Assembly: GCA_002431915.1 (NCBI GenBank)
Contig: DJEP01000026.1
Span: 9,034 to 73,033, forward strand
Reading direction: 5' to 3'
DNA: 64,000 nt
Origin: Lachnospiraceae bacterium UBA5895
Lineage (GTDB): Bacteria > Bacillota > Clostridia > Lachnospirales > Lachnospiraceae
Positions 4,618-64,000 of the stretch are shown piece by piece. The first letter of the stretch is position 1; each line of letters starts with the position of its first letter. A program made the position numbers and the translations under genes. The notes beneath the pieces are model-generated. The model ran no database searches. It was not told where the DNA came from and saw only the letters and a list, made by a program, of their open reading frames with translations.

Positions 4618-4635
4618 ACATTCTGCCTCCCGGGC

Positions 4636-46623: not shown

Positions 46624-46664
46624 CACAAAAGGACATGGGCTGCATCTTGTGCCGCACCATGCCC
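46624..46664 (-). terminator. Candidate terminator after purA
   Basis: Minus-strand RNA is GGGCAUGG...CCAUGUCC (the G-U pair forms only on this strand) followed by UUUUGUGU. Confidence 0.5.
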
Positions 46665-46714
46665 TCTTCCGCATTGTTCTGCTATTACTTATTACAATAT
46701 TACAAATCTTCCGA

Positions 46715-48007
46715 TTATTTCTTCAGAGGACTCTCACGATAAATGATATCTTCTCTTCCCGGACCGTTGCTGACCATGGTAATAGGGAATCCAATCTGTT
46801 CCTCTATGAATTCTACGTACTTTCTGCAGTTCTCGGGCAGATCCTCGAATTTTCTGATGCCACGGATATCGCACTTCCAACCGGGCAGCTTCTTCAATAC
46901 CGGCTTTGCCTTCTCCAGCTTGTAGGTCACAGGGAAGTCCGTAGTAACTTCACCGTCGATCTCATATCCCACGCATACAGGAATCTCATCCAGATATCCC
47001 AGTGCATCCAGTACGGTAAATGCCACATCGGTAGCACCCTGCAGACGGCAGCCATACTTGGTAGCCACACAGTCGAACCACCCCATACGTCTGGGACGTC
47101 CTGTGGTCGCACCGAATTCACCGCCGTCACCACCGCGGCGACGTAACTCATCAGCCTCGTCTCCGAAGATCTCGGATACGAAAGCGCCTGCTCCTACGGC
47201 GGAAGAATATGCCTTACTTACAGTCACGATCTGCTTGATCTCATAAGGAGGAATACCTGCTCCGATGGCACCGTATGCTGCCAGCGTGGAAGAAGAAGTT
47301 ACCATAGGGTAGATTCCGTGATCCGGATCCTTCATGGTACCTAACTGACCCTCTAACAGAATGGTCTTGCCCTCTTTTAATGCTTTATCCAAGAATGCGG
47401 ATACATCGCATACAAAAGGTGCGATCATATCGCGATACTCATGCAGAGTATTTAACAGTTCTGCGGGATCGATCAGGGGCTTGTGGTACAGATGCTCCAA
47501 GATAACATTCTTCATCTCGCTGACGCGCTGTACCTTTTCCTCTAACAGTTCGTCATCGAATAACTCACTTACCTGGAAACCGATCTTCGCATACTTATCA
47601 GAATAGAAAGGTGCAATACCGGACTTGGTAGATCCGAAGGACTTACCGCCCAGTCTCTCCTCTTCGTACTGGTCAAATAAAATATGATAAGGCATTACCA
47701 TCTGTGCACGGTCGGATACCAGAATCTTGGGCATCGGAACATTTCTGTCTGTGATAGACTTGATCTCCTTCATCAGGATGGGAATGTTTAACGCCACGCC
47801 GTTACCGATCACGCTGGTGGTATGATTGTAAAATACACCGGAAGGAAGGGTGTGCAGAGCAAATTTACCATAATTGTTCACGATGGTATGTCCTGCGTTT
47901 GCGCCGCCCTGAAAACGTACGATAATGTCCGCTTTCTCTGCCAGCATATCTGTGATCTTTCCTTTTCCTTCGTCGCCCCAGTTGGCTCCTACAACTGCCT
48001 TTACCAT
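46715..48007 (-). CDS. purA: Adenylosuccinate synthase
   Basis: P-loop GANWGDEGKGKITD and GGANAGHT. Start placed at MVKAVVG (48007), because the track start ATGGAGGAAAAC is itself the SD. Confidence 0.95.
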   Translation of the reverse strand: MVKAVVGANWGDEGKGKITDMLAEKADIIVRFQGGANAGHTIVNNYGKFALHTLPSGVFYNHTTSVIGNGVALNIPILMKEIKSITDRNVPMPKILVSDRAQMVMPYHILFDQYEEERLGGKSFGSTKSGIAPFYSDKYAKIGFQVSELFDDELLEEKVQRVSEMKNVILEHLYHKPLIDPAELLNTLHEYRDMIAPFVCDVSAFLDKALKEGKTILLEGQLGTMKDPDHGIYPMVTSSSTLAAYGAIGAGIPPYEIKQIVTVSKAYSSAVGAGAFVSEIFGDEADELRRRGGDGGEFGATTGRPRRMGWFDCVATKYGCRLQGATDVAFTVLDALGYLDEIPVCVGYEIDGEVTTDFPVTYKLEKAKPVLKKLPGWKCDIRGIRKFEDLPENCRKYVEFIEEQIGFPITMVSNGPGREDIIYRESPLKK

Positions 48008-48206
48008 GTTTTCCTCCATTCTTTATCACAGTTCGTGATAAATCTAACTCAAATCTCTTACTTTTGTGAGGGAAAAACATTTCTCCCACACTGCTTTCCA
48101 GTATACATCACTTTGTAATATAAGTAAAATCAATATTTATTATATTTATTATAATCTACATCTATATCCAAAACGCGCAGCGTTTTGACATGCGAAACTT
48201 TTCGCA

Positions 48207-49613
48207 TTATTCTCTTCCATCCCAGCAATACGTACACAACTTCTCTCTGCCGATGCCCACGGACTCGATCATGTCATCCAGTCTCTGGAACTGCAGGGTG
48301 GTGAAATTCAGCTGTCTGCCGATACGGGATACCATTTCCGCATACTCCGGCGTATCGGGATCCACGTAATTTTTCAGGTCGATTTCTCTGCCTTCCTGCT
48401 CGATCTCTTTAATCACACGACGGGTGATCAGATCCATCTCGGAGGAGGATCTGGAGAAATTCAGATACTTACAACCGTATAATAACGGAGGGCATGCCGG
48501 ACGGATATGTACTTCCTTCGCACCGCTCTGGTATAAAAATTCCGTCGTCTCTCTCAGCTGTGTACCCCGGACAATGGAATCATCAATGAGCAGCAGGCTC
48601 TGATCCTGAATCAGATCGTGTACCGGGATCAGCTTCATCTTCGCAATCAGATTACGCTGGGTCTGAATCGTCGGCATAAAAGATCTGGGCCAGGTCGGTG
48701 TATACTTGATGAACGGACGGGAAAAAGGAATGCCCGAACGGTTCGCGTATCCCACTGCATGGGCGGTACCGGAATCCGGTACTCCCGCTACGATATCCGG
48801 CTTCACATTGTCGCGCTCCGCCAGCTTGGCGCCGCACTGATAACGCATTTTCTCAACACTGATGCCCTCATAGGATGAGGACGGATATCCGTAATAAACC
48901 CACAAAAACGTACAGATCTTCATGTCCTTGCCGGGCTGTACCAGTGTCCGCACACCTTCCGGCGTCACGACAGCGATCTCTCCCGGTCCCAGTTCACGTA
49001 CAGGCTGGTATCCCAGATTCAGATAGGCAAAACTTTCAAAGGAGACACAGTATGCTCCTTCTTTTTTGCCCACAGCCACCGGGGTCCGCCCCATCTTATC
49101 TCTGGCCGCATAGATTCCCTTCGGTGTCATGATCAGTAACGTCAGGGAACCGTCGATGATCTCCTGGGCATACTGGATGCCCTCCACCAGATTATCCTTC
49201 TGATTGACAATTGCCGCCACCAGTTCCGTGGCGTTGATATCTCCGCCGCTCATCTCCAGGAAATGGGAATGTCCTTTTGCGAACAGATCCTGAATGATGA
49301 CATCGATGTTATTGATTTTGCCTACCGTGGTAATGGCATAGGTTCCATGATGGGAACGCACCATCAGCGGCTGGGGTTCAAAATCGGAAATACATCCGAT
49401 ACCGAGATTCCCCCGCATCTCATTGACGTCCTTGTCGAACTTTGTACGGAACGGCGCATTCTCGATATTGTGGATGGCTCTGTTATAACCTTCCTCTTTG
49501 CTGTAGACTGCCATTCCGGCACGTCTGGTTCCCAGATGGGAATGATAGTCTGTTCCGAAAAACAGATCAAACACACAGTCTTCTTTTGCTGCGACTCCAA
49601 AAAATCCACCCAT
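48207..49613 (-). CDS. Amidophosphoribosyltransferase paralog lacking the N-terminal Cys nucleophile
   Basis: 468 aa and collinear with PurF. The N-terminus reads MGGFFGV instead of CGVFGV. The PRTase motif LLLIDDSIVRGTQ and the four Cys positions aligning with the Fe-S ligands are retained. Confidence 0.75.
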   Translation of the reverse strand: MGGFFGVAAKEDCVFDLFFGTDYHSHLGTRRAGMAVYSKEEGYNRAIHNIENAPFRTKFDKDVNEMRGNLGIGCISDFEPQPLMVRSHHGTYAITTVGKINNIDVIIQDLFAKGHSHFLEMSGGDINATELVAAIVNQKDNLVEGIQYAQEIIDGSLTLLIMTPKGIYAARDKMGRTPVAVGKKEGAYCVSFESFAYLNLGYQPVRELGPGEIAVVTPEGVRTLVQPGKDMKICTFLWVYYGYPSSSYEGISVEKMRYQCGAKLAERDNVKPDIVAGVPDSGTAHAVGYANRSGIPFSRPFIKYTPTWPRSFMPTIQTQRNLIAKMKLIPVHDLIQDQSLLLIDDSIVRGTQLRETTEFLYQSGAKEVHIRPACPPLLYGCKYLNFSRSSSEMDLITRRVIKEIEQEGREIDLKNYVDPDTPEYAEMVSRIGRQLNFTTLQFQRLDDMIESVGIGREKLCTYCWDGRE

Positions 49614-49712
49614 TTTTGTCTCCTGCTCTCTGCTGTTTATTTTACCGTAACGCAGAAAACCGCCATTGGCTTTTGGTCAAATGACGGGTTTCTGTGATTG
49701 TAACATTCCTAT

Positions 49713-51170
49713 TTATACATTGATCTCCGCTTTCACGCCCAGGAAATCCTTGTTTGCCTCCAGGATGGGATTGATCACATTTTTCAGGAAAGCGTCCACC
49801 TGTTCTTTGGAGCGTCCGATATATTTGGACGGATCCATGGATGCCTTCAGTTCCTCCAGTCCCATGGGGAATGCGGGATCTGCGGCGATCAGTTCCAACA
49901 GGTTGTTCTCCTTGCCTTCTACCTTCACATTGCGTCCGGCTTCCATGGAAAGCTCACGGATACGCTCATGCAGCTCCTGACGATTACCGCCTAACTTTAC
50001 AGCATCCATCATGATATTCTCGGTAGCCATGAAAGGAAGTTCGCTCATCAAGTGTTTCTCAATTACCTTCGGATATACCACCAGACCATCCACCACGTTC
50101 AGGCACAGATCCAGGATGCCATCGATGGCAAGGAAGCCTTCGGGAATGGACAGTCTCTTGTTAGCGGAGTCATCCAGGGTTCTCTCGAACCACTGGGTAG
50201 CGGAAGTAATGGCGGGATTCAGGGCATCTACCATCACATAACGGGACAGGGAAGCAATACGCTCACTTCTCATGGGATTACGCTTATATGCCATAGCGGA
50301 GGAACCGATCTGATTCTTCTCGAAGGGTTCTTCCACTTCCTTCAGATGCTGTAACAGACGGATGTCATTGCTCATCTTGTGTGCGGATGCCGCAATACCT
50401 GCCAGTACATTGGCTACTCTGGTATCCACCTTACGGGAATAGGTCTGTCCGGATACGGGATAGCACTCCTTGAAGCCCATCTTGGCGGCGATCATGGGAT
50501 CGATCTTGTCGATGGTCTCCTGATCTCCGTTGAACAGCTCCAGGAAGGATGCCTGGGTTCCGGTGGTTCCCTTGGAGCCTAACAGCTTCATGGTATTCAG
50601 AACATGATCCAGGTCTTCCAGATCCAAAGAGAACTCCTGCAGCCACAGTGTTGCTCTCTTACCTACGGTCGTAGGCTGTGCAGGCTGAAAATGAGTAAAT
50701 GCCAGGGTCGGCTGTGCCTTATACTTGTCTGCAAAGTCAGCCAGTTCCTTCATGACATTGATCAGCTTTTTTCTGACTAATTTCAGTGCTTCTGTCATCA
50801 CAATAATATCGGTGTTGTCACCCACATAACAGGAAGTAGCACCCAGATGGATGATTCCGGCTGCCTTGGGGCACTGCTGTCCGTATGCATAAACATGGCT
50901 CATAACATCATGACGTACCAGCTTCTCACGCTCTTTTGCCACATCATAGTTGATGTCTTCGGCGTGTGCCTTCAGCTCCTCGATCTGTTCATCTGTGATG
51001 ACGGGTTTGCCATCCTGGGACAGTCCCAGCTCTTTCTCCGTCTCTGCCAGTGCGATCCACAGCTTTCTCCAGGTGCGGAATTTCATATCCGGGGAGAAAA
51101 TATACTGCATCTCCTTGCTGGCATAGCGTTCGGATAACGGGCTCTGATATCTGTCTGTACCTGTACTCAT
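49713..51170 (-). CDS. purB: Adenylosuccinate lyase
   Basis: Fumarate lyase signature GSSAMAYKRNP. Start placed at MSTGTDRYQSPL (51170, SD AGAGGAG). The track extension to 51251 runs into repeat copy B. Confidence 0.95.
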   Translation of the reverse strand: MSTGTDRYQSPLSERYASKEMQYIFSPDMKFRTWRKLWIALAETEKELGLSQDGKPVITDEQIEELKAHAEDINYDVAKEREKLVRHDVMSHVYAYGQQCPKAAGIIHLGATSCYVGDNTDIIVMTEALKLVRKKLINVMKELADFADKYKAQPTLAFTHFQPAQPTTVGKRATLWLQEFSLDLEDLDHVLNTMKLLGSKGTTGTQASFLELFNGDQETIDKIDPMIAAKMGFKECYPVSGQTYSRKVDTRVANVLAGIAASAHKMSNDIRLLQHLKEVEEPFEKNQIGSSAMAYKRNPMRSERIASLSRYVMVDALNPAITSATQWFERTLDDSANKRLSIPEGFLAIDGILDLCLNVVDGLVVYPKVIEKHLMSELPFMATENIMMDAVKLGGNRQELHERIRELSMEAGRNVKVEGKENNLLELIAADPAFPMGLEELKASMDPSKYIGRSKEQVDAFLKNVINPILEANKDFLGVKAEINV

Positions 51171-51201
51171 TTGTCTGCTCCTCTTATTTTCTAAATTATT
51201 G

Positions 51202-51308
51202 CAACTATTCCAAACCCATCCCTCACATTTCCAAAATCGTATGACTCTCATACTTTCCCGCTGCTCCGCGCTGATTTTGTTCTTATTCTAAGGGGTTCTG
51301 AATAGTTA
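51202..51308. repeat. Copy B of the AACTATTCAG-terminus repeat family
   Basis: CAACTATTCCAAACCC ... GGGGTTCTGAATAGTTA. It fills almost the whole purF-purB spacer. Confidence 0.7.
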
Positions 51309-51312
51309 TTGT

Positions 51313-52764
51313 TTATTTGTCAAACTCTCCGCGAATATCCTCCTCGGGCGGTTCCATCGGATATTTCCCTGTAAAGCATCCCTTACAGATGCCGAGCCTG
51401 CCGCCTACCAGTTCTTCCAGTCTCTCGATCTTCAGATAGTCCAGACTGTCCGTACCGATGAGATCACTGATCTCTTTGATGGAACGATTATAGGCGATCA
51501 GCTGGTCTCTCGCCGGAACATCCGTACCGAAATAGCAGGGCCACAGAAAAGGCGGTGAACTGACTCTCATATGGACTTCCTTCGCTCCTACCTCCCGTAA
51601 CATCTTCACGATACGGTCGGAGGTGGTGCCGCGGACAATGGAATCATCGATCATAATGACACGCTTGCCTTCCACGGCTTTCCGGATGGGATTTAACTTG
51701 ACCTGAACACTGCTCTCTCTGCTCTTCTGCTTCGGCTTGATAAAGGTTCTGCCCACATAGGCATTTTTCACGAATCCCATACCGTAAGGAATTCCGGACT
51801 GCATAGAATATCCCATGGCAGCACAGTTACCGGACTCCGGCACGCCGATGACCAGATCCGCATCCACCGGGGAATCCATAGCCAGGAACTTTCCTGCCAG
51901 AATACGGGAATCGTACACACTGATTCCGTCGATGAAGCTGTCGGGTCTGGCGAAATAAATATACTCAAAAATACATCTTGCGGTATCCGCAGGCTTCAAT
52001 ACATGGGTAGTGTCGGACTCGATCCCCTTCTCCGGAGATATGGTCACGATCTCTCCGGGTAACACATCCCGGACAAATTCTGCCCCTACCGTATCTAGAG
52101 CACAGGTCTCACTGGACAGAAAATAGGCATTATCTCTCTTACCGATACATAAAGGCTTAAAACCATAAGGATCTCTGGCACCGATCAGCTTCCTCGGAGA
52201 CATCACCACCAGGGAGTAGGCTCCCTTGATCTTCGTCATGGCTCTGCCTACCGCTTCCTCGACGGATTTGGAGTTCAGGCGCTCTCTGGCAATATGGTAC
52301 GCAATGACCTCGGAGTCAATGGTGGTCTGGAAGATCGCTCCGGTATACTCCAGCTCTCTCCGCAGCTCCGGAGCGTTGATCAGATTACCGTTATGCGCCA
52401 GTCCCAAAGTACCTTTTACATAGTTAAGCACCAGGGGCTGTGCATTCTCTCTGGTGGAGCCGCCCGCCGTGGAATAGCGGACATGGCCAACACCGATGTC
52501 ACCCTTTAATTTTTCCAGGTGCTCCGGTGTAAATGCCTCGTTGACCAGTCCCATATCCTTGCTGCTTAATACTTTTCCTTTGGGACCGTTCGTATCGCTG
52601 ACGGCGATACCGCAGCTCTCCTGTCCTCTGTGCTGCAACGCCAGAAGCCCGTAATAGATCGTGGATGCCACATCGTGTCCGTCAAAATCGTACACACCGA
52701 AGACACCGCATTCTTCCTTTAATTTATCATTATTTTCCGTCTGGATATAAATGTTGTCCGTCAC
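51313..52764 (-). CDS. purF: Amidophosphoribosyltransferase (canonical, with propeptide)
   Basis: GTG start and an 18-aa propeptide, then CGVFGV. HNGNLIN, the PRTase motif VIMIDDSIVRGTT and the Fe-S Cys ligands are present. Confidence 0.95.
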   Translation of the reverse strand: MTDNIYIQTENNDKLKEECGVFGVYDFDGHDVASTIYYGLLALQHRGQESCGIAVSDTNGPKGKVLSSKDMGLVNEAFTPEHLEKLKGDIGVGHVRYSTAGGSTRENAQPLVLNYVKGTLGLAHNGNLINAPELRRELEYTGAIFQTTIDSEVIAYHIARERLNSKSVEEAVGRAMTKIKGAYSLVVMSPRKLIGARDPYGFKPLCIGKRDNAYFLSSETCALDTVGAEFVRDVLPGEIVTISPEKGIESDTTHVLKPADTARCIFEYIYFARPDSFIDGISVYDSRILAGKFLAMDSPVDADLVIGVPESGNCAAMGYSMQSGIPYGMGFVKNAYVGRTFIKPKQKSRESSVQVKLNPIRKAVEGKRVIMIDDSIVRGTTSDRIVKMLREVGAKEVHMRVSSPPFLWPCYFGTDVPARDQLIAYNRSIKEISDLIGTDSLDYLKIERLEELVGGRLGICKGCFTGKYPMEPPEEDIRGEFDK

Positions 52765-52821
52765 CTGTAAGCCTTACCTTTCCTGCCTGCCCCCGCAAAA
52801 AAGAATACCCGAAAACGTTAT

Positions 52822-53697
52822 TTACAGTTCCCTGCCTGTCAGCATCTTGTATGCCTGAAGATATTTGTCGATGGTCTTCTGCACGATATCCTCCGGCAGC
52901 TTCCAGCCCTTTTCTGGGTTGGCTTTCAGCCAGTCTCTTGCAAACTGCTTGTCAAAGGAAGGCTGTCCGTGACCGGGCTCATAGCCGTCTACCGGCCAGA
53001 AACGGGAACTGTCGGGAGTCAGTACTTCATCTCCCAGTACCATGTTGCCGTTCTCGTCCAGACCGAACTCAAACTTGGTATCTGCGATAATAATTCCTCT
53101 GGTCAGTGCGTAATCCGCACACTTTTTATAAATAGCGATGGTATAGTCACGAAGCTTGGCAGCATATTCTGCTCCCTTGCCCGGGAAACGCTTCTCCAGA
53201 TATTCCACACTCTGCTCATAGGAGATGTTCTCATCATGATCTCCGATCTCCGCCTTGGTGGAAGGGGTATAGATGGGCTCAGGAAGCTTGTCTGCCTCCT
53301 TCAGACCTTCCGGAAGCTTAATACCGCAAACGGTACCGTTCTTCTTGTAGCTTTCCCAGCCGCTTCCGGTAATGTATCCACGAACGATGCACTCGATGGG
53401 GAGCATGTTCAGCTTCTTGCACATCATGCTGTTACCGTCAAATTTCGGCTGTCTGAAAAATTCAGGCATATCATTGACATCTACAGATACCATATGATTG
53501 GGAATCACATCCTCTGTCATGTCAAACCAGAATTTCGACATCTGGGTCAATACAGTTCCCTTCTTCGTTACTGTGTTGTCCAAGATCACATCAAAGCAGC
53601 TGATACGGTCAGTTGCCACCATGATCAGGGTGTCTCCGTTGTCGTAGATCTCACGAACTTTGCCTTCCTTGATCGGTTTCATTTCCTGTACGCTCAT
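52822..53697 (-). CDS. purC: Phosphoribosylaminoimidazole-succinocarboxamide synthase
   Basis: 291 aa and collinear with long-form SAICAR synthases ([26 protein letters not shown]). Confidence 0.93.
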
Positions 53698-54712: not shown

Positions 54713-55363
54713 CTATCTGTAATAAGATGTCTTCTTCTCCAGGTATTCCATGAAGGATGCCACGACGAGATTGAAGATATAGTAGAACACACCTGCGGCT
54801 AACAGCGGAACCACACTGGTCTGTGCGGCTCCGATCTGCTTCGCCACCGTGAACATCTCCGCGATGGAGATGGTAAATGCCATAGAAGTATCCTTAACTA
54901 ACGTAATGGTCTCATTGGTCACCGGCGGAAGAACCCGCTTCACCACCTGCGGCAGAATAATCTTTACGAAGGTCTGTGCCTTACTGTAGCCCAGCACCTG
55001 CGCTGCCTCGTACTGCCCCACCGGAATGGATTCGATACCCGCACGGTAGATCTCTGCGAAATATGCCGCATAATTGATCACGAATGCCACGATCACCGCC
55101 GGGAAACGATACCCCGTCCCCACCTGCATGCGGAACACATAAAAAGGGGCGAAATACACCACGATGATCTGTAACATCAGAGGGGTTCCTCTCATGATGG
55201 ATATGTATATTTTGGAAATAATCCGGATCACCTTACATCCCGACATTCTTCCGAAGGCTACAATCAACCCCAGAGGAAGGGAGAATAAAAGGGTCAGTAC
55301 AAATATTTCCACCGTTATCAGAAAGCCCTCTGCCAGCTGGGCACACATGGTCAGCAAACTCAT
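54713..55363 (-). CDS. Polar amino acid ABC transporter permease
   Basis: 216 aa with five TM; His/Glu/Gln/Arg/opine family appearance. Confidence 0.9.
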   Translation of the reverse strand: MSLLTMCAQLAEGFLITVEIFVLTLLFSLPLGLIVAFGRMSGCKVIRIISKIYISIMRGTPLMLQIIVVYFAPFYVFRMQVGTGYRFPAVIVAFVINYAAYFAEIYRAGIESIPVGQYEAAQVLGYSKAQTFVKIILPQVVKRVLPPVTNETITLVKDTSMAFTISIAEMFTVAKQIGAAQTSVVPLLAAGVFYYIFNLVVASFMEYLEKKTSYYR

Positions 55364-55411
55364 GAAATCTACTCCTTAACTCACTCAACCCACTTTACGA
55401 TTTGCGGTTGA

Positions 55412-56212
55412 TTATTTACCGAGGCAGACACTGTCGGTCAGTCCCCATTTTTCAGCGATCTGTGTGAAGGTACCGTCTGCTGCCATCTCATCCAGTGTCT
55501 TCTGTACGGTATCTCTTAACTCATCGTTGCCCTTTAAGAAGCCTACGGCATACTGCTCTACTGCCAGCTTGTTGTCCTCGCCCTGTAACATAACAAACTT
55601 CCCTGCTTCTCTCTGATCGATCTGGTACTGTGCCACACCGATGTCAATAGCCACAGCGTCTACCGCGCCCTGCTCCAGATCCATGAAAGCCGTGTTGTAA
55701 TCCGCATATTCAATCAGCTGCGCAAAGGAATCGCGAAGTGCGATATTGTCTGCGTTCTCTTCGTCATTGAGTGCAGCCAGTGCGGAAGAATCCTTCTGTA
55801 CCGCTACGACCTTGCCTGCCAGTTCTTCCTTATTCTGTACACCGGAAGCGGATGCTACGACGAATACCTGGCTGTTGTCAATGTAGGGCTCTGTCCAGGT
55901 GTAGGCATCCTCTCTGCCGTTCATGGTGAAACCGTTCCAAATACAGTCAATGGCTCCGGAGGAAAGTTCCATATCCTTGGCATCCCAGTCGATAGGCTGC
56001 TTTACCAGTTCCCACCCCTGTCTCTTACATACTTCCGCTGCCAGATCCAGGTCAAAGCCTACATATTCTCCACTGTCATCACGATATCCGTAAGGGGGAA
56101 ACTCCGCATCGAAACCTACGGTAAATGATTTCTCAGATCCTTTAGAACCACAGCCGGTAAGAACACCTGCTGCCATGCTGATTGCCAGTAATGCCACTAA
56201 TACTCTTTTCAT
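55412..56212 (-). CDS. Amino acid ABC transporter substrate-binding lipoprotein
   Basis: Lipobox LTGCGS and family 3 SBP appearance. Start placed at MKRVLVALL (56212, SD GGGAGGA). Confidence 0.85.
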   Translation of the reverse strand: MKRVLVALLAISMAAGVLTGCGSKGSEKSFTVGFDAEFPPYGYRDDSGEYVGFDLDLAAEVCKRQGWELVKQPIDWDAKDMELSSGAIDCIWNGFTMNGREDAYTWTEPYIDNSQVFVVASASGVQNKEELAGKVVAVQKDSSALAALNDEENADNIALRDSFAQLIEYADYNTAFMDLEQGAVDAVAIDIGVAQYQIDQREAGKFVMLQGEDNKLAVEQYAVGFLKGNDELRDTVQKTLDEMAADGTFTQIAEKWGLTDSVCLGK

Positions 56213-56273
56213 AATACATCCTCCCGTCTTGTCACTCATATACTTTAGTATGGTAAATCGCTAACACGGTGTC

Positions 56274-56303
56274 ATAGTAACACAACGAGAGGGGTCTTGT
56301 CAA
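56274..56303 (-). promoter_or_regulatory. Candidate promoter for the amino acid ABC operon
   Basis: Minus strand reads TTGACA - 18 nt - TACTAT, immediately after the stop of the upstream gene. Confidence 0.4.
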
Positions 56304-56307
56304 TTCT

Positions 56308-57468
56308 TTATCGGTCGTAACGCTCCACCATAGAGAGGATCTCCTGCGCGTATTTCGGATACAGCGCCGCCACTTCTTTTACTTCATTGCGGGCACTCTC
56401 CGCCACTTCCTGATTATAATCCATCTGTTTGCGGAGCGCCTGTCTTCTCTGGATCAGTTCATGGCGGATTTCCACCATCTCGCGTTTATCCAAAAGTGCC
56501 GCTGTCTGACCGATCCACCGCTCCGGCATCTGCACGCGGTAGTTCGACAGCTGTTCCACCAATTGTTTCTGATAATACTCTGTCTTCGCTTCCGCTTCCG
56601 CGAACTGCTTGCGCTCTTCCTTTTCATCCTGGTACATTTTCCAGCGTTTCTCCAGCTTTGCCGCACTGTCCGTATTGTATTTCAGATAGAGATATTCCAT
56701 CAGCTGACAGTTGTTCACATAGCGGATTTTGACCTTATTCTGCAGTTGGATGATCTTGTTGATGGTCTTCTCCACCCGCTGCAGTTCCCGTCCGGCATCC
56801 ATATATTTGATGCAGACATAGGAAATCGCCACGGCACCCGCTCCCACTGCCAGAAACAGTCCCACATAGACATCCATCTCAAATCCGAACTGTAAGATTG
56901 CCAGCATGATCACACACACCACCAGTGCCGTAAAAAATATCACCGCCATCCCTCTCTGATTGTTCATCAGATTCTCCAGTTCGTTCCTCCGGTATTCGTA
57001 AGCATGTCTCTCTCCGTCCAGTCTGTGCAGATCCTGTCTGACCAGATTGCCGTATTTTTCGCCCTCACGGATCTTTTGGATTCCCTCTTCGATCTCGTCT
57101 TCTCTCTTGCGGATCGCATAGAAATCCGCATCCCGCATGCGGTTCTTTTTCTCCCGGTATTTGTTGCGTTCCTGCTCCAGACCTGCCAGTTTGGCAGCGG
57201 TACGGTTGACCTCCGAGCGCTGCTCCTCGGGCAGAGCCTCGATCTCATCCGTATCCGTCAGGTAGGACGTCACTAACGTATACTCTCCGGTCAGAAGGTC
57301 GATTTCCCTGGAAGCTTCCGCAATCTGCTCGAGGCAGTTTACAATATAACGCTTTCTTTGGTCCTCCTCGTCAAAGTTCACACCGTTCCGGGTATAGACC
57401 AGCTGTTCCCAGTCTTCCTCCTGCTGTACCGGTTCTTTTTTCTTAAAAAAGCGGTTCCACCACGCCAT
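56308..57468 (-). CDS. Uncharacterised bitopic protein: coiled-coil / TM hairpin / coiled-coil
   Basis: 386-aa ORF, 16 nt downstream of the preceding gene. It has two central TM segments (MAVIFFTALVVCVIMLAILQF, VYVGLFLAVGAGAVAISYVCI) flanked by charged heptad-like regions. Confidence 0.65.
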   Translation of the reverse strand: MAWWNRFFKKKEPVQQEEDWEQLVYTRNGVNFDEEDQRKRYIVNCLEQIAEASREIDLLTGEYTLVTSYLTDTDEIEALPEEQRSEVNRTAAKLAGLEQERNKYREKKNRMRDADFYAIRKREDEIEEGIQKIREGEKYGNLVRQDLHRLDGERHAYEYRRNELENLMNNQRGMAVIFFTALVVCVIMLAILQFGFEMDVYVGLFLAVGAGAVAISYVCIKYMDAGRELQRVEKTINKIIQLQNKVKIRYVNNCQLMEYLYLKYNTDSAAKLEKRWKMYQDEKEERKQFAEAEAKTEYYQKQLVEQLSNYRVQMPERWIGQTAALLDKREMVEIRHELIQRRQALRKQMDYNQEVAESARNEVKEVAALYPKYAQEILSMVERYDR

Positions 57469-57484
57469 ACTTTTCTCCTGTCTG

Positions 57485-58342
57485 TTATACGTTCACACTG
57501 GTCCGATAGCTGTTTTTCAGAGCTGTCGTCAGTCTCTCATTCTCTGCATCATACTTCTGTCTGTCTTCCGCCCGCCAGGTACTGCGAAGCTGCAGCTGCC
57601 TGTACTCCGGCTGCTGCTCCCATTCCCTGCCAAACTGTTCCATACTTTTCTCCAATTCCAGGGACTCTGTATAAAACTCCGGATTCTGTGCTGCAAAAGC
57701 CACATAGGCATCCTCCGGCAGTTCCATGCGTTTTGCTGCAAGATAGGCATCCAGATGTACTCTCTCCGGTTCGACCTGCCAGGCCTCTCTGAACTGCTCC
57801 GCCGCCTTATCATACAGCATCAGCCCGGTCAGTGCCACACCTTTATTATGTAATATGGCTGCTCTTACCTTACCCGCAGGGAGTTCTCTTCCTTCCGCTT
57901 CCAGCGTACTCCAGGTCTCTAACAGCATATCGTATCCACGGATGGCAGCGGCGTATTTCCTCTTTTCCACCATATAGTCGATCTGACTTTTACGCTTCTC
58001 TAAATTGCTCAGACCGGCTCCCTGCTTCAGCACCTGTTCCACCTGCCGCAGGTCTTCTTCGCCATACATTCCCACATACTGTAAAATCGTCAGCACGAAG
58101 ACACTTAAGGAGCCCTGCTTATGTATCATGGGGTACAGCTGCTTTGCCAGTTCCCTGACCTTGCATTCCTCTCCGATCCAGTCTGCCAGTTTGTCGTTCA
58201 TAATGGACAGGTCTAAGAGGAAAGCATTCTCCTTCAGGCAATAACACAGTTCCTCCATGCAGCAGACACGGATCCCCAGTTCTTCCACCGTATAGGCATT
58301 TTCACAATATTCACCTACGCACAGACTTGCCCTCATTTCCAT
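57485..58342 (-). CDS. Uncharacterised protein: Cys-rich N-terminus plus TPR-like helical region
   Basis: 285-aa ORF with six Cys in the first 37 residues. The start may be the third codon (58336), which has better SD spacing. Confidence 0.6.
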   Translation of the reverse strand: MEMRASLCVGEYCENAYTVEELGIRVCCMEELCYCLKENAFLLDLSIMNDKLADWIGEECKVRELAKQLYPMIHKQGSLSVFVLTILQYVGMYGEEDLRQVEQVLKQGAGLSNLEKRKSQIDYMVEKRKYAAAIRGYDMLLETWSTLEAEGRELPAGKVRAAILHNKGVALTGLMLYDKAAEQFREAWQVEPERVHLDAYLAAKRMELPEDAYVAFAAQNPEFYTESLELEKSMEQFGREWEQQPEYRQLQLRSTWRAEDRQKYDAENERLTTALKNSYRTSVNV

Positions 58343-58385
58343 TCCTCATTTCCATCCATCTTTTACCACCTGTCAGTCCGGTCTT

Positions 58386-59624
58386 TTACAGTTCGATCTC
58401 TTCCTTCCAGATATGGTGTGTTGCCGCACGAAACGTGCCAAATCCCAGATCTTCCAGCTCTACTGTAAGATGCGTGTCGTCTTTCATCTCCACGCTGATC
58501 TTAAGCCTGGTGATTCCCTCCTGCAGTTCCTCGGGGACGATCCTGGCGATCCGGTTCCCCTTCCCTGTCAGGGATGTGATCAGGATCTCCACCGCCCGTC
58601 CTTCCAGCAGGTAGAATTCCATGCTGTTCTTCGCCTCGTACCAGTTGATTCCCGCGTCGAGAAGTGCGCAGTAGGACTCTTCCCCCTGTCGTAGGATCTT
58701 CATGCCGATATTGGATTTTAATTTATCATCACCTAAAAATACATGGGTCTTCCCTGCTTCACTGGGAGACAGCCGTTCCATCATGCTGTAGCAGGCACCC
58801 TTGCTGAACAGATTGTTGCCCTGGAAGACTCTTCTTCCGTGGCACAGATAGCGCAGGGATTCCTTCATCCATTCCTGCGAGAACGCCTCACCGATCAGAT
58901 ACACCGAAGAGACGATACTGTTACTGCACAGGCTGGTGGCGATCTCTAACATTTTCTCATCCGATTCCGGCACCGGAAAAGGGAACTCCCGCTCTTCCAT
59001 ATAGGCTACCACCGGCGTGGTATGGCGATTGCATTCCATGCAGTAGGTACGTATGGAGTGCTCCGCGTATTCACACAACACCGTCTTATGCCGCCACAGT
59101 TCCTCCGGCTGGTACAGATTATAGTAATAAAAACTTTCCACATGACTCTGAAAACAGATCTGTTCCGTCTTAAGATGCAGTCCTTCCGTCGCTGCGGTCA
59201 GCACTTCTAACATCCGGGGATCCAGTTCTTCACAGGTGATCATTAACGCTCCGATCTTCTCCGCATTCGCCACCTGGGATAACAGCCCAAGACTACGCTT
59301 CAGGAACAGCGTCAACAGCGCCACGGGATCTAAGCTCGTCCCGTCGATCTGCACCGGCTCTCCGTCCTTTGCCAGCTTCAGCAGGTTCTCCACCAGGATC
59401 CCATCTTCTTCCTGCGCATATCTTACCGCTTCGCTCCCATAGAACCACTGATTCACACCCTGTCTCTTGCTGAGTGCCAGGGGGATGGTAAATACCTGGG
59501 ATCCCGCCACGGAAGAAAGTGTTCTGATTTCTTCCCCACTGCCTGTAACATAACAGCTGATCTGTGCATATCTGCTGCCCAAATCATATCCGACGATCAC
59601 TTTTTCACTTCCCGGCAGCCGCAT
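58386..59624 (-). CDS. Uncharacterised Hsp70/actin-fold-like protein with degenerate nucleotide-binding motifs
   Basis: 412 aa. The N-terminus VIVGYDLGSRYAQIS resembles Hsp70 phosphate-1. The C-terminal segment ITRLKISVEMKDDTHLTVELEDLGFG resembles the Hsp70 substrate-binding-domain beta segment by eye. Confidence 0.6.
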   Translation of the reverse strand: MRLPGSEKVIVGYDLGSRYAQISCYVTGSGEEIRTLSSVAGSQVFTIPLALSKRQGVNQWFYGSEAVRYAQEEDGILVENLLKLAKDGEPVQIDGTSLDPVALLTLFLKRSLGLLSQVANAEKIGALMITCEELDPRMLEVLTAATEGLHLKTEQICFQSHVESFYYYNLYQPEELWRHKTVLCEYAEHSIRTYCMECNRHTTPVVAYMEEREFPFPVPESDEKMLEIATSLCSNSIVSSVYLIGEAFSQEWMKESLRYLCHGRRVFQGNNLFSKGACYSMMERLSPSEAGKTHVFLGDDKLKSNIGMKILRQGEESYCALLDAGINWYEAKNSMEFYLLEGRAVEILITSLTGKGNRIARIVPEELQEGITRLKISVEMKDDTHLTVELEDLGFGTFRAATHHIWKEEIEL

Positions 59625-59674
59625 CTTCCTTCCGCCTCCTCTCTGTTATCCTTTTTGTTATTTTTCTTCCGGTC

Positions 59675-62600
59675 TCACTGTAAAGTAAACAGCCTGTGAT
59701 CCAGATATTCTCTCCGGTAATATTCTTCGATCAGATGATCCAGGGTATCATCATCCTGCAGAGTCATGCTGATCATCATGTCATTGATGATCTCGTACTT
59801 GCTGTCCGGATTATCATTCATGATATCGCTCCTCTGCAGGCTGCCGCTCTCTGTTAGCTGCTCGCCGTTTTCGGATTCCTCCATAATATAATACTGGATG
59901 TTTTCCCCGAAGAACAGTACAAATTCCTTGAAAAATACTCCGCTGTACACTTCCTGCATGTACTCCGACAGATAATCCTCCGCCTGTCCGTTCTCCTGCA
60001 GCATCACATAATGGATCCTTGCCCGGACACCTGCTTTGGTATGATATTCCACGATAGTCTTGTCCTTCAGTTCCTGAAGCTCGGGCAAACAATCCTTGAA
60101 TTCCCGGAAAAAGTTCAGGTGAATATGCTCCCGCATCATTTCCTCCAGGAAATCCCGGATTAACGGTTCATCTTCCTTCTCTATCTTGTCCCGGTTCTCC
60201 GCATAGAACTTCAGATATGCCAGCTTGCAGATCCGCTGCGTCTCCTCACCCCGCAGGTAGGTGTTACGGATCTCCCGGAAGATATATTCTTCCGTAAGCT
60301 TTTCTCTGCAGAAGTAATCACAGGAGCTCTGTATCAGTACAGCTTCCTCGATCTCCTGTCTCGCTCCCTGGGATACATAATAACGGAAGATATCCATTCT
60401 CTCTCCCACAAAAGCGCCGGAAAACAGCATCTGCACCAGAATCCGCTCGCTGAGCTCATAGCAGTCCACTTCAAAGGACCTGGCGGATTTCCAGATATCC
60501 CGCAGTTCCTTCGTGGTTCCCACAGCGTAGCGCACCAGATACTCCAAAACATTGCCGTTGTATTTTCCCCTGTGGAAGTCGGACAATGCCGCCGCATACA
60601 ATGCCGGTTCTCCATCATGTGCTGCCTGGGAGATCAGTGCATCCGTCAGCCTGAGCAGGATCTTGGCATCCGCATAATACGGTGTGAAGCTTTCGATCCA
60701 TTCGTATGCCTTTTCATAATTCCCACGAAGCACCAGGAACCTAAGCAGGATCTCTCTCTGTTCCGTCGTGAATTTCTGCCCGTCTAATTCCTGCAGATAG
60801 GCATCCAGTGCCTGCATATTGTCCGCATCGAAATACGCCTGTACCAGTGCTACCGCCTGTTTCTGTCTGAGTGCCGGTTCCACCGCATCCGACGTTGCCA
60901 GACGTGCCATGCGCATCAGCTTTGAGGAAGACAGTGCTTCCTCGCCCTTGTCGTTCTCTGCAAAATACAAATCCAGTTCCACCGTATCCGGCACATAATG
61001 TTCCAAAAGCCGCAGATATTTTCCGGGCACCAACAGCTTTTCCAGGGTATATTCCACATTTTTGAGGAACCTGTTACCATAGGCATCCTCAAAAGCAATG
61101 GTATATTCATTCCCATAGATTGCCACCCATGCTGTGCCATTTAATAAGGGGATCTCCTTCATCTTCCGGTTGCCCGGCTGGCAGACGATCACCCTGCGCA
61201 TCCTGTCGTCTTCCACTCTGACCAGATGGGCAAACAGAAGCCTTGACAACGGCTTCGCCATGACCTCCGTGACGATCGCCGGCGTTAAGAACCGCTGGTA
61301 TAATACCGCCAGGTGCCTGTTGATATGCTGCTTCTGGATCTGATCGATTACAAAACGTTCGATACGCGGTTCATAATGTTCATATAGTTCCTCGTATTCC
61401 TCTCTGTGCTTCAGAAGATAAGCGTATAAAAACGCGCTGTGTTCATAGTCCAGATTGTTTTGGAAGGAGAAGTACATCAGAATCACTTTAGGCAGTTCCG
61501 TGGTGGAATCCATATCCACCGAAGCCATATAATACTCATACAGATTTGTGATCCGCAGATGGCTCTCCACACCCTTTTGGTACCAGATATACGCGTCCGG
61601 TCCGGTCTTGCTGCCCTTGATCAACAGGCTGCAGATCTCCTGCAGGATCCGCACGTCTTCTTTTTTCTCATAGGTCTTCTTCAATATCCGGCATAAAAGC
61701 GGAGAATACTCCCGCACTCTGCCGGACAGATACAAAAGCTGTTCCAGCAGACTGTCATTCACAGCTCCGTGCCGCACTCCGAAATGCAGTACCTGTAATT
61801 CAAAGCCGGTCAGCTTCCGCAAAAGTGCCGGATTCCCGTTTAACAGTGCCAGTGCTTCCAGATAGATCACCGGGCTGGAGCAGCCGTATTGGTACTGTTT
61901 CTCCAGAAACATCCATTTTCCGGAGGTGGACCGGTTGTATTCCTCCGACAAATATAATAAAAGCCATGCCACTCTCCAGCGGCTCCTGTCATAGCGGTAG
62001 ATCTGCTCCACCTGTTCCGCCGTCTGCATGGTATACTGGGCATCTCTGTGGATCAGTGTGGTCAGATACAGATAATATGCCCACAATTCTCCGCCGGTGG
62101 CTTTCTGCGCTTCCAGCATGTCCACCACATGATCTAAGATCCAGCCCGCTTCGTTATAACGCTCCTCCGTGATCAGAAGCTGTGCCTGGAACAGTCTCGC
62201 CGACACATCCTTCTCATCCATGGTCACCATGCGTTCTACCAGTTTGCCGGTCTCTGAGAGCCATGTGCCCGTGCCAATCTTTTTCAGACGGAATTCTTCA
62301 TAATATTTCATGATCTGCGTGATGCACTGCATATGGCTGTGATCCGCATGCCGTACCGCCGTACGGTCTCCCAGCTGTACCATCACAGGGATCTCTATGG
62401 AAATATAAGCATTATAGATATAGATTCTTCCGAAATTTTTACCGGGTCTGCATACACTGCTGTCAATATATACGGGAAGTCTGCACCGGTTACCGAGGAA
62501 ATCATCATCGCTTAAGCTTTCTTTTTCCGTGAAGACAAACTCTCCCTCGCATTCGATCTGCAGATTGGTATAGCCCCAGCCGTTCCGAACAACCGTCAGA

Positions 62601-63250
62601 CTGTTCTCCGACACGCCGTAATTGCCTTCCGTGCGGGGCAGCTTTTTCACCAGTTCCTTCTCTTCCACCAGGAATTCGATCTGTTGCTTTTTATTGATGC
62701 AGATCAGGAATTCCTCCATGTTCTGCTCATTGCCTTCACAGGCGGACAACATCCGGTAAGTCTCGTAGAAATGGGCATCGTTCCCCGTAAACAGTCGTAA
62801 AAAATCCGGGCTGTAGAACAGCCGCACCGCTTCCTTCCAGCTGCTTTTCGCCAGGTTCGCGAAGTGGAACAGATTCCTTATGGCACCTATGGAGGAATTT
62901 AACACGCCGTGTTCCACCGTCACCACAAAAGGAAGGTTGTATTCTCCGCGGTTGCTGACCACAGAAAAAGAGCCCTTCACCACATCCCCTTCTTCCAGGT
63001 TCTCACCGTGGAAGCAGTAAAAAATTTCTGCATCGGAGCCGGTAAACTGATCAGTCATACATTCCATTTTCAGATGGTCTGAGATGACAGATCCTTTTAC
63101 ATAGCCTTCCGATGCAGAGAGGATGTGAAAAGAGCCCTCATACGCTGTCCCCTGTGACAGCGAGATTTCTATTTTAGAGCAGGAGAATTCCAAAGAGCCG
63201 TTCTCGTAATCGAAGTTCCCTCCTAAAATTCTATCAATAGTCTCCTGCAT
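59675..63250 (-). CDS. Uncharacterised 1191-aa protein: two N-terminal beta-rich modules, about 800 aa of helical repeats, and a C-terminal beta-rich module
   Basis: Single uninterrupted ORF and first gene of the operon. No signal peptide, TM segment or catalytic motif recognised. Confidence 0.7.
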   Translation of the reverse strand: MQETIDRILGGNFDYENGSLEFSCSKIEISLSQGTAYEGSFHILSASEGYVKGSVISDHLKMECMTDQFTGSDAEIFYCFHGENLEEGDVVKGSFSVVSNRGEYNLPFVVTVEHGVLNSSIGAIRNLFHFANLAKSSWKEAVRLFYSPDFLRLFTGNDAHFYETYRMLSACEGNEQNMEEFLICINKKQQIEFLVEEKELVKKLPRTEGNYGVSENSLTVVRNGWGYTNLQIECEGEFVFTEKESLSDDDFLGNRCRLPVYIDSSVCRPGKNFGRIYIYNAYISIEIPVMVQLGDRTAVRHADHSHMQCITQIMKYYEEFRLKKIGTGTWLSETGKLVERMVTMDEKDVSARLFQAQLLITEERYNEAGWILDHVVDMLEAQKATGGELWAYYLYLTTLIHRDAQYTMQTAEQVEQIYRYDRSRWRVAWLLLYLSEEYNRSTSGKWMFLEKQYQYGCSSPVIYLEALALLNGNPALLRKLTGFELQVLHFGVRHGAVNDSLLEQLLYLSGRVREYSPLLCRILKKTYEKKEDVRILQEICSLLIKGSKTGPDAYIWYQKGVESHLRITNLYEYYMASVDMDSTTELPKVILMYFSFQNNLDYEHSAFLYAYLLKHREEYEELYEHYEPRIERFVIDQIQKQHINRHLAVLYQRFLTPAIVTEVMAKPLSRLLFAHLVRVEDDRMRRVIVCQPGNRKMKEIPLLNGTAWVAIYGNEYTIAFEDAYGNRFLKNVEYTLEKLLVPGKYLRLLEHYVPDTVELDLYFAENDKGEEALSSSKLMRMARLATSDAVEPALRQKQAVALVQAYFDADNMQALDAYLQELDGQKFTTEQREILLRFLVLRGNYEKAYEWIESFTPYYADAKILLRLTDALISQAAHDGEPALYAAALSDFHRGKYNGNVLEYLVRYAVGTTKELRDIWKSARSFEVDCYELSERILVQMLFSGAFVGERMDIFRYYVSQGARQEIEEAVLIQSSCDYFCREKLTEEYIFREIRNTYLRGEETQRICKLAYLKFYAENRDKIEKEDEPLIRDFLEEMMREHIHLNFFREFKDCLPELQELKDKTIVEYHTKAGVRARIHYVMLQENGQAEDYLSEYMQEVYSGVFFKEFVLFFGENIQYYIMEESENGEQLTESGSLQRSDIMNDNPDSKYEIINDMMISMTLQDDDTLDHLIEEYYRREYLDHRLFTLQ

Positions 63251-63285
63251 GTACCTTCACCCGTTCCCTGTTGTCATTTGGATTT

Positions 63286-63314
63286 ATTATACCAAATTTG
63301 CTACGCAAGGGCAA
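63286..63314 (-). promoter_or_regulatory. Candidate promoter of the four-gene operon
   Basis: Minus strand reads TTGCCC - 17 nt - TGgTATAAT (extended -10), 35 nt upstream of the 1191-aa ORF start. Confidence 0.5.
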
Positions 63315-63327
63315 GGTGCAGACCCGG

Positions 63328-64000
63328 TTAGTCGAGGTTTAATTTTTTGTTCAGGATGTAGTAAGATACCCCATACATGATCGCTGCAACAAGTGCGCTG
63401 GTGAGCACATTAATGTCATATGCCCAGTTGGTGGTAATGCCGATTCCGCCGGGGCTGCTTAGCGCAGTCGTACTGAACATAAATACACTCTGTACCGTAC
63501 TTCCGATGATGGAGGACAGGATTGTAAGACCCGCATAGGCGAGGATTCCCATCAATCCTTTGTGTTTGGAGGAAAGCTGTCCGATGGTCAGTGCTCCGAA
63601 CAGGGTAATCATGGTAATAAAGGGACCTGCCACATAGGTGATCAGCAATGTGATTCCGTAATGCACCAGATTCATTCCCATCTGTTCTTTATAGACCCTG
63701 TTAAGTTCATAGATGCCGTCCCCCAGGAATTCCCAGATATTCCCATTATATTGTGTCAGAACTCCATTCAGTTCGCCGATATCTATCAGTCCCATCATCA
63801 ATGACACAAGCAGTGCCACAATGGAGATACCGATGCCAATCATAATAAACAGATACCAGACACCGGAGACCAGTACCTTACTTAAAAACAGCTGATTGGC
63901 TGTCACCGGCAGGGTGTGGGACAGATAGCCCTCATCGGTGTACATGCTGCGGTAAAAACGGATGCCCAGGAAGATCAGCATGCCCCATGTGGATGCCAGC
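63328..64000 (-). CDS. ABC-2-type transporter permease-like membrane protein (5' end outside the window)
   Basis: The polytopic ORF remains open upstream of the track Met at 63981 to the window edge. No ATPase motifs are present. Confidence 0.5.
   Translation of the reverse strand, partial: LASTWGMLIFLGIRFYRSMYTDEGYLSHTLPVTANQLFLSKVLVSGVWYLFIMIGIGISIVALLVSLMMGLIDIGELNGVLTQYNGNIWEFLGDGIYELNRVYKEQMGMNLVHYGITLLITYVAGPFITMITLFGALTIGQLSSKHKGLMGILAYAGLTILSSIIGSTVQSVFMFSTTALSSPGGIGITTNWAYDINVLTSALVAAIMYGVSYYILNKKLNLD

Follow-up and report, generated by a model that had tools for sequence, protein, structure and literature searches.

Introduction

Canonical Hsp70 proteins such as DnaK, Hsc70 and BiP, with about 640 residues, combine a nucleotide-binding domain (NBD) with a β-sandwich substrate-binding domain (SBDβ) and an α-helical lid, and the known bacterial members are driven by ATP. 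Ssz1, which forms the yeast ribosome-associated complex (RAC) together with Zuo1, is an atypical Hsp70 with a shortened substrate-binding domain (SBD), which works without an ATPase cycle and whose SBD holds a segment of its partner as a pseudo-substrate in a stable complex. Another such protein is CnuD of the Type III CoCoNuT systems, in which an Hsp70-like NBD and SBD with degenerate ATPase motifs are coupled to HEAT repeats, either fused or as separate proteins (PMC10542128). The CoCoNuTs are defined by a McrB-type GTPase and a McrC homologue, together with nucleases and coiled-coil proteins, and are found in defence contexts. Here we describe a four-gene locus (g1 to g4) of Lachnospiraceae bacterium UBA5895, contig DJEP01000026.1, in which g2 encodes a further Hsp70-fold protein with degenerate nucleotide motifs; the window, as used below, is the whole stretch of 64,000 nucleotides that was analysed.

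The protein g2 belongs to the Pfam family DUF5716 and g1 to DUF5717, and neither entry carries a function. In the literature we found nothing on DUF5716 or DUF5717, on their linkage with tetratricopeptide repeat (TPR) and two-transmembrane proteins, or on the Hsp70 nature of DUF5716. Each of the folds encoded by g1 to g4 is familiar, while the four-part combination matches no described system. The genes form one operon, and on balance we think it probable that they specify a vertically inherited, Lachnospiraceae-restricted assembly at the cytoplasmic face of the membrane, which would be made of interaction modules and include no recognisable enzyme.

The four-gene locus

The genes all lie on the minus strand, with the sizes and spacing that had been reported in an earlier note made from the sequence of this DNA: g1 (59675..63250) is an open reading frame (ORF) of 1191 residues, g2 (58386..59624) of 412, g3 (57485..58342) of 285 and g4 (56308..57468) of 386, and the gaps between them are 50, 43 and 16 nt. 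The start of g3 is most likely the second ATG, at 58336, because homologues begin there and because a GAGGA ribosome-binding site stands 6 nt upstream of it, whereas the same site abuts the first ATG. The corrected gene (57485..58336) encodes 283 residues and widens the gap to g2 to 49 nt. Every ORF has hundreds to thousands of homologues, which indicates that these are real genes, and none of the four has a paralogue within the window.

In Pfam, g1 is matched by DUF5717_N (E = 1e-302, 1006 bits, model positions 1-873 of 875) and by DUF5717 (E = 2e-97, 326 bits, positions 4-306 of 306), both with a cut-off of 25, and residues 126-412 of g2 are matched by DUF5716_C (E = 5e-95, 318 bits against a cut-off of 34.7, positions 1-296 of 296). 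By these profile matches g1 and g2 are bona fide full-length members of the two families. The guess that the proteins might correspond to families known only as DUFs therefore holds for g1 and g2, while g3 and g4 fall into no Pfam family at the default threshold. Neither Pfam, NCBIfam nor fold searches found an enzyme domain in any of the four, in agreement with the lack of recognisable catalytic motifs remarked upon earlier, and no profile or fold search assigned them to a characterised family of unrelated function. Hydrophobic or transmembrane (TM) segments are absent from g1, g2 and g3.

An Hsp70 fold with degenerate nucleotide motifs

A search of the PDB with the single sequence of g2 gave no match, and since the first homologue search had yielded nothing below 89% identity, a representative library and profile queries were used instead. 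The profile of 68 diverse homologues gave seven matches in the PDB, of which six are DnaK, with weak E-values of 0.007-0.06, and the seventh (E = 0.89) is noise. The DnaK match covers two places, the N-terminal NBD of g2 and a segment aligned to the SBDβ signature of DnaK, and in the hhalign alignment the NBD motifs from phosphate-1 through phosphate-2 appear in the DnaK order.

For the structure, we modelled a natural g2-g3 fusion (P0168, 737 residues), which is about 49% identical to both window proteins, with an alignment of 101 rows. The model has a mean predicted local distance difference test (pLDDT) of 86 and a predicted template-modelling score (pTM) of 0.68. Its top 50 Foldseek matches in the PDB are all Hsp70s, with E-values from 1e-16 to 5e-9, and include DnaK, Hsc70, BiP, Ssb, Sse1 and Ssz1/RAC; the RAC entries 6sr6, 7x3k and 5mb9 are among the best. 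The structural alignments extend over about 550 columns, covering the NBD and SBDβ, at a sequence identity of 10-14%, and the template-modelling score to the lid-truncated DnaK 7kru is 0.52. On the profile, hhalign and Foldseek results and the motif columns, residues 1-290 of g2 (58755..59624, minus strand) are assigned to a degenerate Hsp70-type NBD, and residues 295-412 (58389..58742, minus strand), which follow a hydrophobic, linker-like VFLG, to an SBDβ-like β-sandwich (DUF5716_C, hidden Markov model and Foldseek). With the canonical Hsp70s, g2 shares the fold of NBD lobes IA, IB and IIA and of the SBDβ sandwich, and with DnaK the full motif order of phosphate-1, connect-1, phosphate-2, adenosine and connect-2. 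An Hsp70-type fold with degenerate ATP-binding motifs was what the earlier note had proposed for g2, and it is borne out on both counts.

The degeneration is evident in the alignment of the 68 members. The phosphate-1 loop (P1) reads G-[YFI]-D-L-[GNS]-[DEN]-x, against GIDLGTT in Hsp70, so that the two phosphate-binding Thr are replaced by mostly acidic residues. Phosphate-2 (P2) reads D-Y-x-x-x-x-L, without the glycines of the Hsp70 motif DLGGGTFD, and there is no conserved Lys in the region equivalent to K70. Of these nucleotide motifs, only the glycine G245 of the adenosine motif (GGxxxxP in Hsp70) is invariant. The distance from P2 to the adenosine motif is about 60 residues in the g2 family, against about 147 in DnaK, and in the P0168 model only a loop and one helix lie between the two motifs. 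This spacing and the secondary structure of the model, rather than a superposition, indicate that subdomain IIB is apparently missing from g2.

The protein also lacks the α-helical lid, since it stops at residue 412, with the last SBDβ strand, and its C-terminus reads ...[IVL]-E-[LVI], with no conserved EEVD-like or acidic tail. A DnaJ/J-domain or a GrpE domain was found by Pfam and NCBIfam neither in g1, g3 and g4 nor in the immediate neighbours, so g2 differs from canonical Hsp70s also in having no J-protein or GrpE partner in its operon. Because the phosphate loops are degenerate and the P2 glycines and, as it appears, IIB are lost, g2 is a minimal Hsp70-fold protein that very probably operates without an ATP cycle; from the motif columns and the model we infer that its ATPase activity has been lost.

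The likeness to Ssz1 is one of working principle and not of family membership. Ssz1 has a full ATP-binding NBD and a ribosomal J-protein as partner, whereas the partners of g2 would be TPR, solenoid and membrane proteins, and the ribosome link of RAC has no indicated counterpart in g1-g4. CnuD resembles g2 by description only, as an Hsp70-like unit coupled to helical repeats, and searches of the four proteins and their neighbours with Pfam, NCBIfam and PADLOC showed neither a McrB-type GTPase nor McrC (DUF2357).

The TPR protein g3 and its fusions to g2

The protein g3 consists of a conserved N-terminal domain, a TPR region and C-terminal helices, and in the P0168 model the g3 part is all-α after a short β hairpin. 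The TPR region comprises residues 109-200 of the 285-residue ORF (57743..58018, minus strand). In the PDB the g3 profile matches designed TPRs (E = 7.5e-5) and Tah1 (E = 6e-4), and in 40 members of the g3 family Pfam finds TPR_1 in 21 (best E = 8e-7), TPR_2 in 14 and TPR_8 in 11. Homologues of g3 are already named TPR proteins at NCBI. The earlier description of g3 as both Cys-rich and TPR-like thus holds in its second half; the Cys richness is not conserved among homologues, and there is no conserved CxxC motif.

Since K118, D122 and N166 are invariant across deep clades, the TPR groove is the constrained surface of g3. These residues align with K8, N12 and N43 of Tah1, which are carboxylate-clamp positions; the comparison covers the first three of the five clamp positions (K, N, N, K, R), of which K118 and N166 are kept and the equivalent of N12 is an Asp (D122). 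In being a short TPR domain coupled to an Hsp70-fold protein, g3 is similar to the clamp-type TPR co-chaperones Tah1, Hop, CHIP and SGTA. It differs from them in having D122 in place of Tah1 N12, in the absence of an EEVD-type tail on g2, and in its N-terminal domain of about 100 residues and its C-terminal helical extension, which have no counterpart in these proteins.

Natural fusions of g2 and g3 account for 7 clusters among the best 150 representatives of the g2 family, and a later search added about 37 further clusters at 90% identity. The two parts are joined by a linker of about 15-25 residues, the members of one fusion cluster occur on dozens of contigs, and at the fusion locus a DUF5717 gene precedes and a g4 homologue follows the fused gene. 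Among the contacts considered here, the g2-g3 association alone has independent support, which comes from these fused sequences.

Two other relationships of g3 were considered and rejected: as a detached Hsp70 lid, its profile aligns with the DnaK lid at E = 0.26 with a probability of 0.2% in hhalign, and relatedness between g3 and g4 gave E = 0.56. The 90%-identity cluster of protein P0311 mixes DUF5716 proteins of 417 residues with entries of 262 residues named "tetratricopeptide repeat protein", which are g3 homologues; it is either bridged by a fusion sequence or a clustering artefact.

A TPR domain beside an Hsp70 fold also suggests an ATP-driven specialised chaperone, in which g2 would cycle via non-canonical residues, with g3 as TPR co-chaperone, g4 as membrane receptor and g1 as client, nucleotide-exchange-like or targeting factor, and whose task would be the folding or insertion of a particular protein class at the membrane. 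Such a system would account for the presence of both NBD and SBDβ with the VFLG linker, for the conservation of D14, E163/S164 and G245 in g2, and for the resemblance of the g3 TPR to the Hsp70/Hsp90-binding Tah1, and the genes for HtpG and GroEL are found nearby in 9 of 50 close loci and in 52 of the 80 loci of one clade, respectively. We nevertheless consider it unlikely, given that the P1 Thr-Thr pair has become acidic and the P2 glycine loop is lost, that IIB, which lines the adenine pocket, is apparently absent along with the lid, that the operon encodes no J-domain or GrpE-like protein and g2 ends without a conserved EEVD-like tail, and that the HtpG and GroEL neighbours reflect lineage-specific synteny.

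The large protein g1 and the membrane protein g4

The AlphaFold2 model of g1, from 73 sequences (mean pLDDT 86.1, pTM 0.60), contains Ig-like domains at residues 27-112 and 192-293 with a helical segment (127-184) between them, two α-solenoids (297-672 and 743-1061) separated by a small β domain (674-738), a second β domain (1064-1139) and C-terminal helices (1153-1184). This is in accord with the initial impression of β-sandwich-like ends around a long helical-repeat body, the C-terminal end consisting of a β domain and two helices. Foldseek returned only generic matches for g1, with template-modelling scores of at most 0.15, to the TPR/HAT scaffolds SYF1, Naa15, SKI3, Ctr9 and IFT-A and to tandem Ig or BACON domains. 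The g1 profile had no meaningful sequence match in the PDB, and no catalytic domain was detectable in g1 with Pfam, NCBIfam, the PDB profile search or Foldseek.

The membrane hairpin of g4, placed between long arms as had been predicted, is encoded at 56809..56949 (minus strand) and comprises TM1 (residues 174-196), an acidic loop of three residues (EMD) and TM2 (200-220), with Kyte-Doolittle 19-mer maxima of 3.07 and 2.24. The N-terminal (1-173) and C-terminal (221-386) arms are charged, poor in Pro and Gly and probably helical; a crude heptad test for the coiled coils that the earlier note had suggested here was not clear-cut. Basic residues are found beyond the outer ends of both helices (R172 on one side, K221 and R227 on the other), and from the positive-inside rule both termini, and with them the arms, are predicted to be cytoplasmic. 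The g4 profile had no meaningful match in the PDB, and the homologues gave only weak Pfam matches, to SLATT_4 (3 of 31) and SLATT_1 (2 of 31), all at E > 0.01, and a few to DUF2207_C.

The most conserved motif of the g4 alignment, QNKVKIRYVNN (residues 243-253; 56710..56742, minus strand), lies about 20 residues after TM2. Q243, N244, V246, K247, I248, R249, Y250 and N252 are invariant in the alignment, and N244, V246, K247, Y250, V251 and N252 are at least 95% conserved across deep clades. Its KVKIRYV segment has a hydrophobic core with basic flanks, as DnaK-binding peptides do, and by this analogy we speculate that it may be what the SBDβ of g2 holds.

Conservation and distribution of the locus

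In the 80 best related loci (close loci, with g2 48-99% identical), from Acetatifactor, Waltera and other Lachnospiraceae, g1, g2 and g3 are always colinear (80/80) and g4 comes next in 68, with median gaps of 23, 16 and 15 nt. Where the sequence reaches more than 5 kb downstream, as in 68 of the close loci, g4 is present in 61 and absent in 7, and in these 7 g3 directly adjoins an ABC transporter or pur genes. In the clade that lost g4, g1 is more diverged from the window protein (per-domain identity ratio 0.65-0.96, lowest C-terminally), while g2 and g3 are unchanged. The shift is a weak hint of functional coupling between g1 and g4; it is confounded by phylogeny and may reflect a single clade.

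Further away, the g2 family comprises 1078 representative clusters (50% identity) at E <= 1e-3, and in a one-genome-per-species collection at least 586 matching stretches encode a g2 relative. All four genes are colinear in three contigs with g2 29-32% identical (MT835719.1, MT835486.1 and MT835988.1; loci L083-L085), and in a distant clade of 80 metagenome loci, with g2 about 33% identical, all four are found in 67, the remainder being mostly short or truncated contigs. The flanks vary by clade, from pur genes and an ABC transporter to ValS and MgsA or an aminotransferase and a Na/H exchanger, and because the flanking genes differ, the conservation belongs to the block itself. The question of synteny in other genomes, left open by the earlier note, is answered by a four-gene order that is kept down to about 30% identity in differing contexts.

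That the four genes might be mere neighbours with unrelated functions could be argued from the dispensability of g4 in some genomes. It is very hard to reconcile with an order and a tight spacing kept from 99% to about 30% identity despite changing flanks, and with the fusion of g2 and g3 in several lineages, and we give it almost no weight.

Leaving aside contigs of metagenome-assembled genomes (MAGs) that are obviously mis-binned, the loci are labelled Lachnospiraceae, Clostridiales or Eubacteriales throughout. Three of the loci (L001-L003: CAVGMD010000001.1, CAVFMG010000023.1 and CAVJMX010000031.1) are labelled Bacteroidaceae, Odoribacter splanchnicus or Bacteroidales, and their proteins are 96-99% (g2) and 95-99% (g1, g3 and g4) identical to those of the window; the fusion homologue P0457 is labelled Muribaculum sp. 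These Bacteroidales-type labels are very probably MAG binning errors. Among cultured strains, Acetatifactor muris DSM 23669 and A. aquisgranensis DSM 110981 carry the operon.

The three distant contigs named above come from human faecal samples and stand in GenBank as "UNVERIFIED: Bacteriophage sp.". A phage origin, raised by five GenBank matches labelled "Bacteriophage sp.", was rejected for the two that were checked, which are bacterial chromosomal fragments; MT835719.1 and MT835486.1 have ValS, GltX, FeoB, MgsA and MCP in their flanks.

A plasmid search gave no match, and in 2.9 million viral contigs there was a single one, at a contig end. In the close clade the locus has a fixed position in about 60 species, between an ABC-transporter permease gene and purF/purB, with purF adjoining in 59 of 68 loci and purB in 56 of 68. 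The GC content of the operon (0.50) lies within the range of the window (0.45-0.52). The earlier expectation of a lineage-conserved system with the composition of its surroundings is supported by these data, and the comparison of genomes supports a core-like operon, vertically inherited in one family, rather than an island.

The same data bear on a possible role in anti-phage defence or abortive infection, in which g1-g3 would sense an invader, as proposed for CnuD, and g4 would act as a SLATT-type two-TM pore. Defence systems often have large TPR or solenoid sensors, and the SLATT matches of some g4 homologues point the same way, as does the joining of degenerate Hsp70-like NBD/SBD units to helical repeats in CoCoNuT systems (PMC10542128). 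These SLATT matches, however, are at E > 0.01 and concern a minority of g4 homologues, and neither PADLOC nor NCBIfam gave anything significant for any of the four proteins. A nuclease, NTPase, cyclase or protease domain was not found by Pfam and NCBIfam, and among the genes of the operon Pfam showed none for a cyclase, SMODS or SLOG protein. Unlike patchy defence islands, the locus is flanked by housekeeping genes with no defence or mobile genes, is fixed in about 60 species with its order kept to about 30% identity, has a native composition, and is absent from plasmids and nearly so from viral contigs. A defence function is accordingly quite improbable.

Proposed assembly

In the arrangement that we favour, an assembly of interaction modules at the cytoplasmic membrane face, the Hsp70 fold of g2 would serve as a permanent protein-protein clamp and not as a cycling chaperone. 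The TPR protein g3 would be an adaptor on g2, presenting its conserved groove to a further partner, and g1, with its Ig-like domains and solenoids, would provide a platform. The tight two-helix hairpin of g4 would anchor the assembly in the membrane, and the KVKIRYV segment just after TM2 could be the peptide held by the SBDβ of g2. Of the membrane-anchored multi-protein assembly suggested in the earlier note, the association of g2 with g3 is supported by their natural fusions, whereas the contacts made by g1 and g4, topology and tethering at the membrane, and a scaffold or holdase-type role are inferred.

Several points weigh against this proposal. The P1 residue D14 is retained (D or E in 66 of 68 members) and G245 is invariant, which leaves room for some nucleotide binding by g2. 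The structure was predicted on a fusion homologue 49% identical to g2 and g3 of the window and not on these proteins themselves. The link between the g4 motif and SBDβ is based solely on the likeness to the DnaK-binding consensus. In addition, about 10% of close loci lack g4, and membrane anchoring would thus be non-obligatory or supplied from elsewhere in the genome.

Regarding a cellular role, a structural module for division, cell shape, the envelope or sporulation overlaps with our preferred explanation; here g4 would recruit g1, with g2-g3 as assembly factors. All parts are non-enzymatic interaction modules inherited vertically in a core-like manner within one family, 58 of 80 close loci, and the fusion locus too, have a gene for a PG_binding_1 protein upstream, and the faster evolution of g1 in the g4-less clade (ratio 0.65-0.96) would fit as well. 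This PG_binding neighbour, however, is limited to one clade, the g1 rate shift may be a single-clade effect, the promoter (see below) is of the housekeeping sigma-70 type and not of a sporulation-sigma type, and Pfam, NCBIfam and PDB profiles revealed no homology to known divisome, elongasome, cytoskeletal or sporulation proteins. We regard this specific role as rather unlikely.

It is possible, though doubtful, that the membrane assembly of g1-g4 is a new cell-biological machine, nucleotide-independent and membrane-tethered, which uses a lidless and IIB-less Hsp70 fold as a structural clamp and serves a process specific to Lachnospiraceae, for example organisation of the envelope or division site or protein handling at the membrane. 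Few bacterial families are more abundant in the mammalian gut than Lachnospiraceae, and g2, a compact derivative apparently without lid, IIB and phosphate loops, is under strong constraint together with its partner genes in at least 586 species genomes of this dominant family. If the proposal is right, DUF5716 and DUF5717 would gain a structural identity and two further families outside Pfam, those of g3 and g4, would be defined; Ssz1 and other pseudo-ATPase Hsp70s would have a parallel in bacteria, and there would be an unexplored part of Lachnospiraceae cell biology that is testable in cultured strains.

Transcription signals

The promoter described earlier in front of g1, TTGCCC-17-TGgTATAAT, is found at 63286..63314 (minus strand) as a sigma-70-type promoter with an extended -10 (10 of 12 consensus matches), and TTGACA-18-TACTAT, described as the next one, is located just past g4 at 56303..56274 (minus strand; 10/12). 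A third 10/12 site lies at 55881..55852 (minus strand), within the gene downstream of g4, and these three share the top score in 55300..64000. The number of promoter-like sites in this region, 10, does not exceed that in shuffled sequences (9.0 ± 2.6), and support for the first promoter comes instead from its conservation, with an equivalent site in 59 of 71 related loci, mostly with an identical TTGCCC -35.

The absence of a terminator between the genes likewise agrees with the scan of the region, which found no terminator-like site in the three intergenic gaps. Six weak sites on the minus strand all lie within ORFs, one of them over the first codons of g4, and both strands together have 12, against 6.1 ± 3.2 in shuffles. 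The site in g4 is a weak hairpin followed by a T-run (GTGGTGGAACCGC TTTTTTAAGA; 57451..57463, minus strand), covering codons 2-9; the hairpin may exist only because the N-terminal peptide encoded there, MxxWxxxFxKKK, is conserved, or it may damp g4 expression. An Rfam scan of 55000-64000 gave no credible RNA element.

About 15-20 of 56 related loci have an inverted repeat around the -10 box, within the 130 nt before g1 (for example L012, L017, L020, L065 and L075, compared with 63260..63330 of the window). The left arm holds the -35 hexamer (GCCCTAYG...), a T-run comes after the right arm (...CRTAGGGC), and the arms co-vary through compensatory changes (CCCTACGAC/GTCGTAGGG and TGCCCTATGAC/GTCATAGGGCA); in the window itself the repeat is degenerate. 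It looks like a terminator of the upstream gene that overlaps the operon promoter, and such an overlap may account for the conservation of the odd TTGCCC -35.

Genomic neighbourhood

In the window the operon is flanked by genes of an amino-acid ABC transporter and of purine biosynthesis. The stretch 43262..53697, which comes after the ABC transporter in the downstream direction, begins with purine-nucleotide genes on the minus strand: a SAICAR synthetase-like gene (52822..53697, assigned by sequence and not by the Pfam scan) is followed by Pfam-supported genes for an amidophosphoribosyltransferase-like protein (51313..52764), adenylosuccinate lyase (49713..51251), a second GATase_7 protein (48207..49613) and adenylosuccinate synthetase (46715..48019). 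The rest of the stretch encodes a LysR regulator, a HAD hydrolase and a CNNM/CorC transporter.

Chaperone genes upstream of the locus were considered as a general trait and rejected, because they are lineage-specific and not kept across clades. The gene htpG, for Hsp90 (619..2736 in locus L006), is separated from g1 by about 3.6 kb of upstream DNA in the 9 loci mentioned above, out of the 50 close loci with more than 6 kb upstream, and groEL (3350..4972 in locus L130) lies 1.4-4 kb upstream in its 52 loci of the distant clade. In the UBA5895 contig such positions would fall beyond the right end of the window.

Upstream of g1, towards the window edge, a membrane protein without a Pfam match is encoded at 63328..63981 (minus strand). 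Its homologue in relatives is an ORF of 294 residues that follows an ABC ATPase gene, which makes it probably the permease of an uncharacterised ABC-2-type exporter. This homologue is found upstream of g1 in 51 of the 80 close loci and not in the distant clades.

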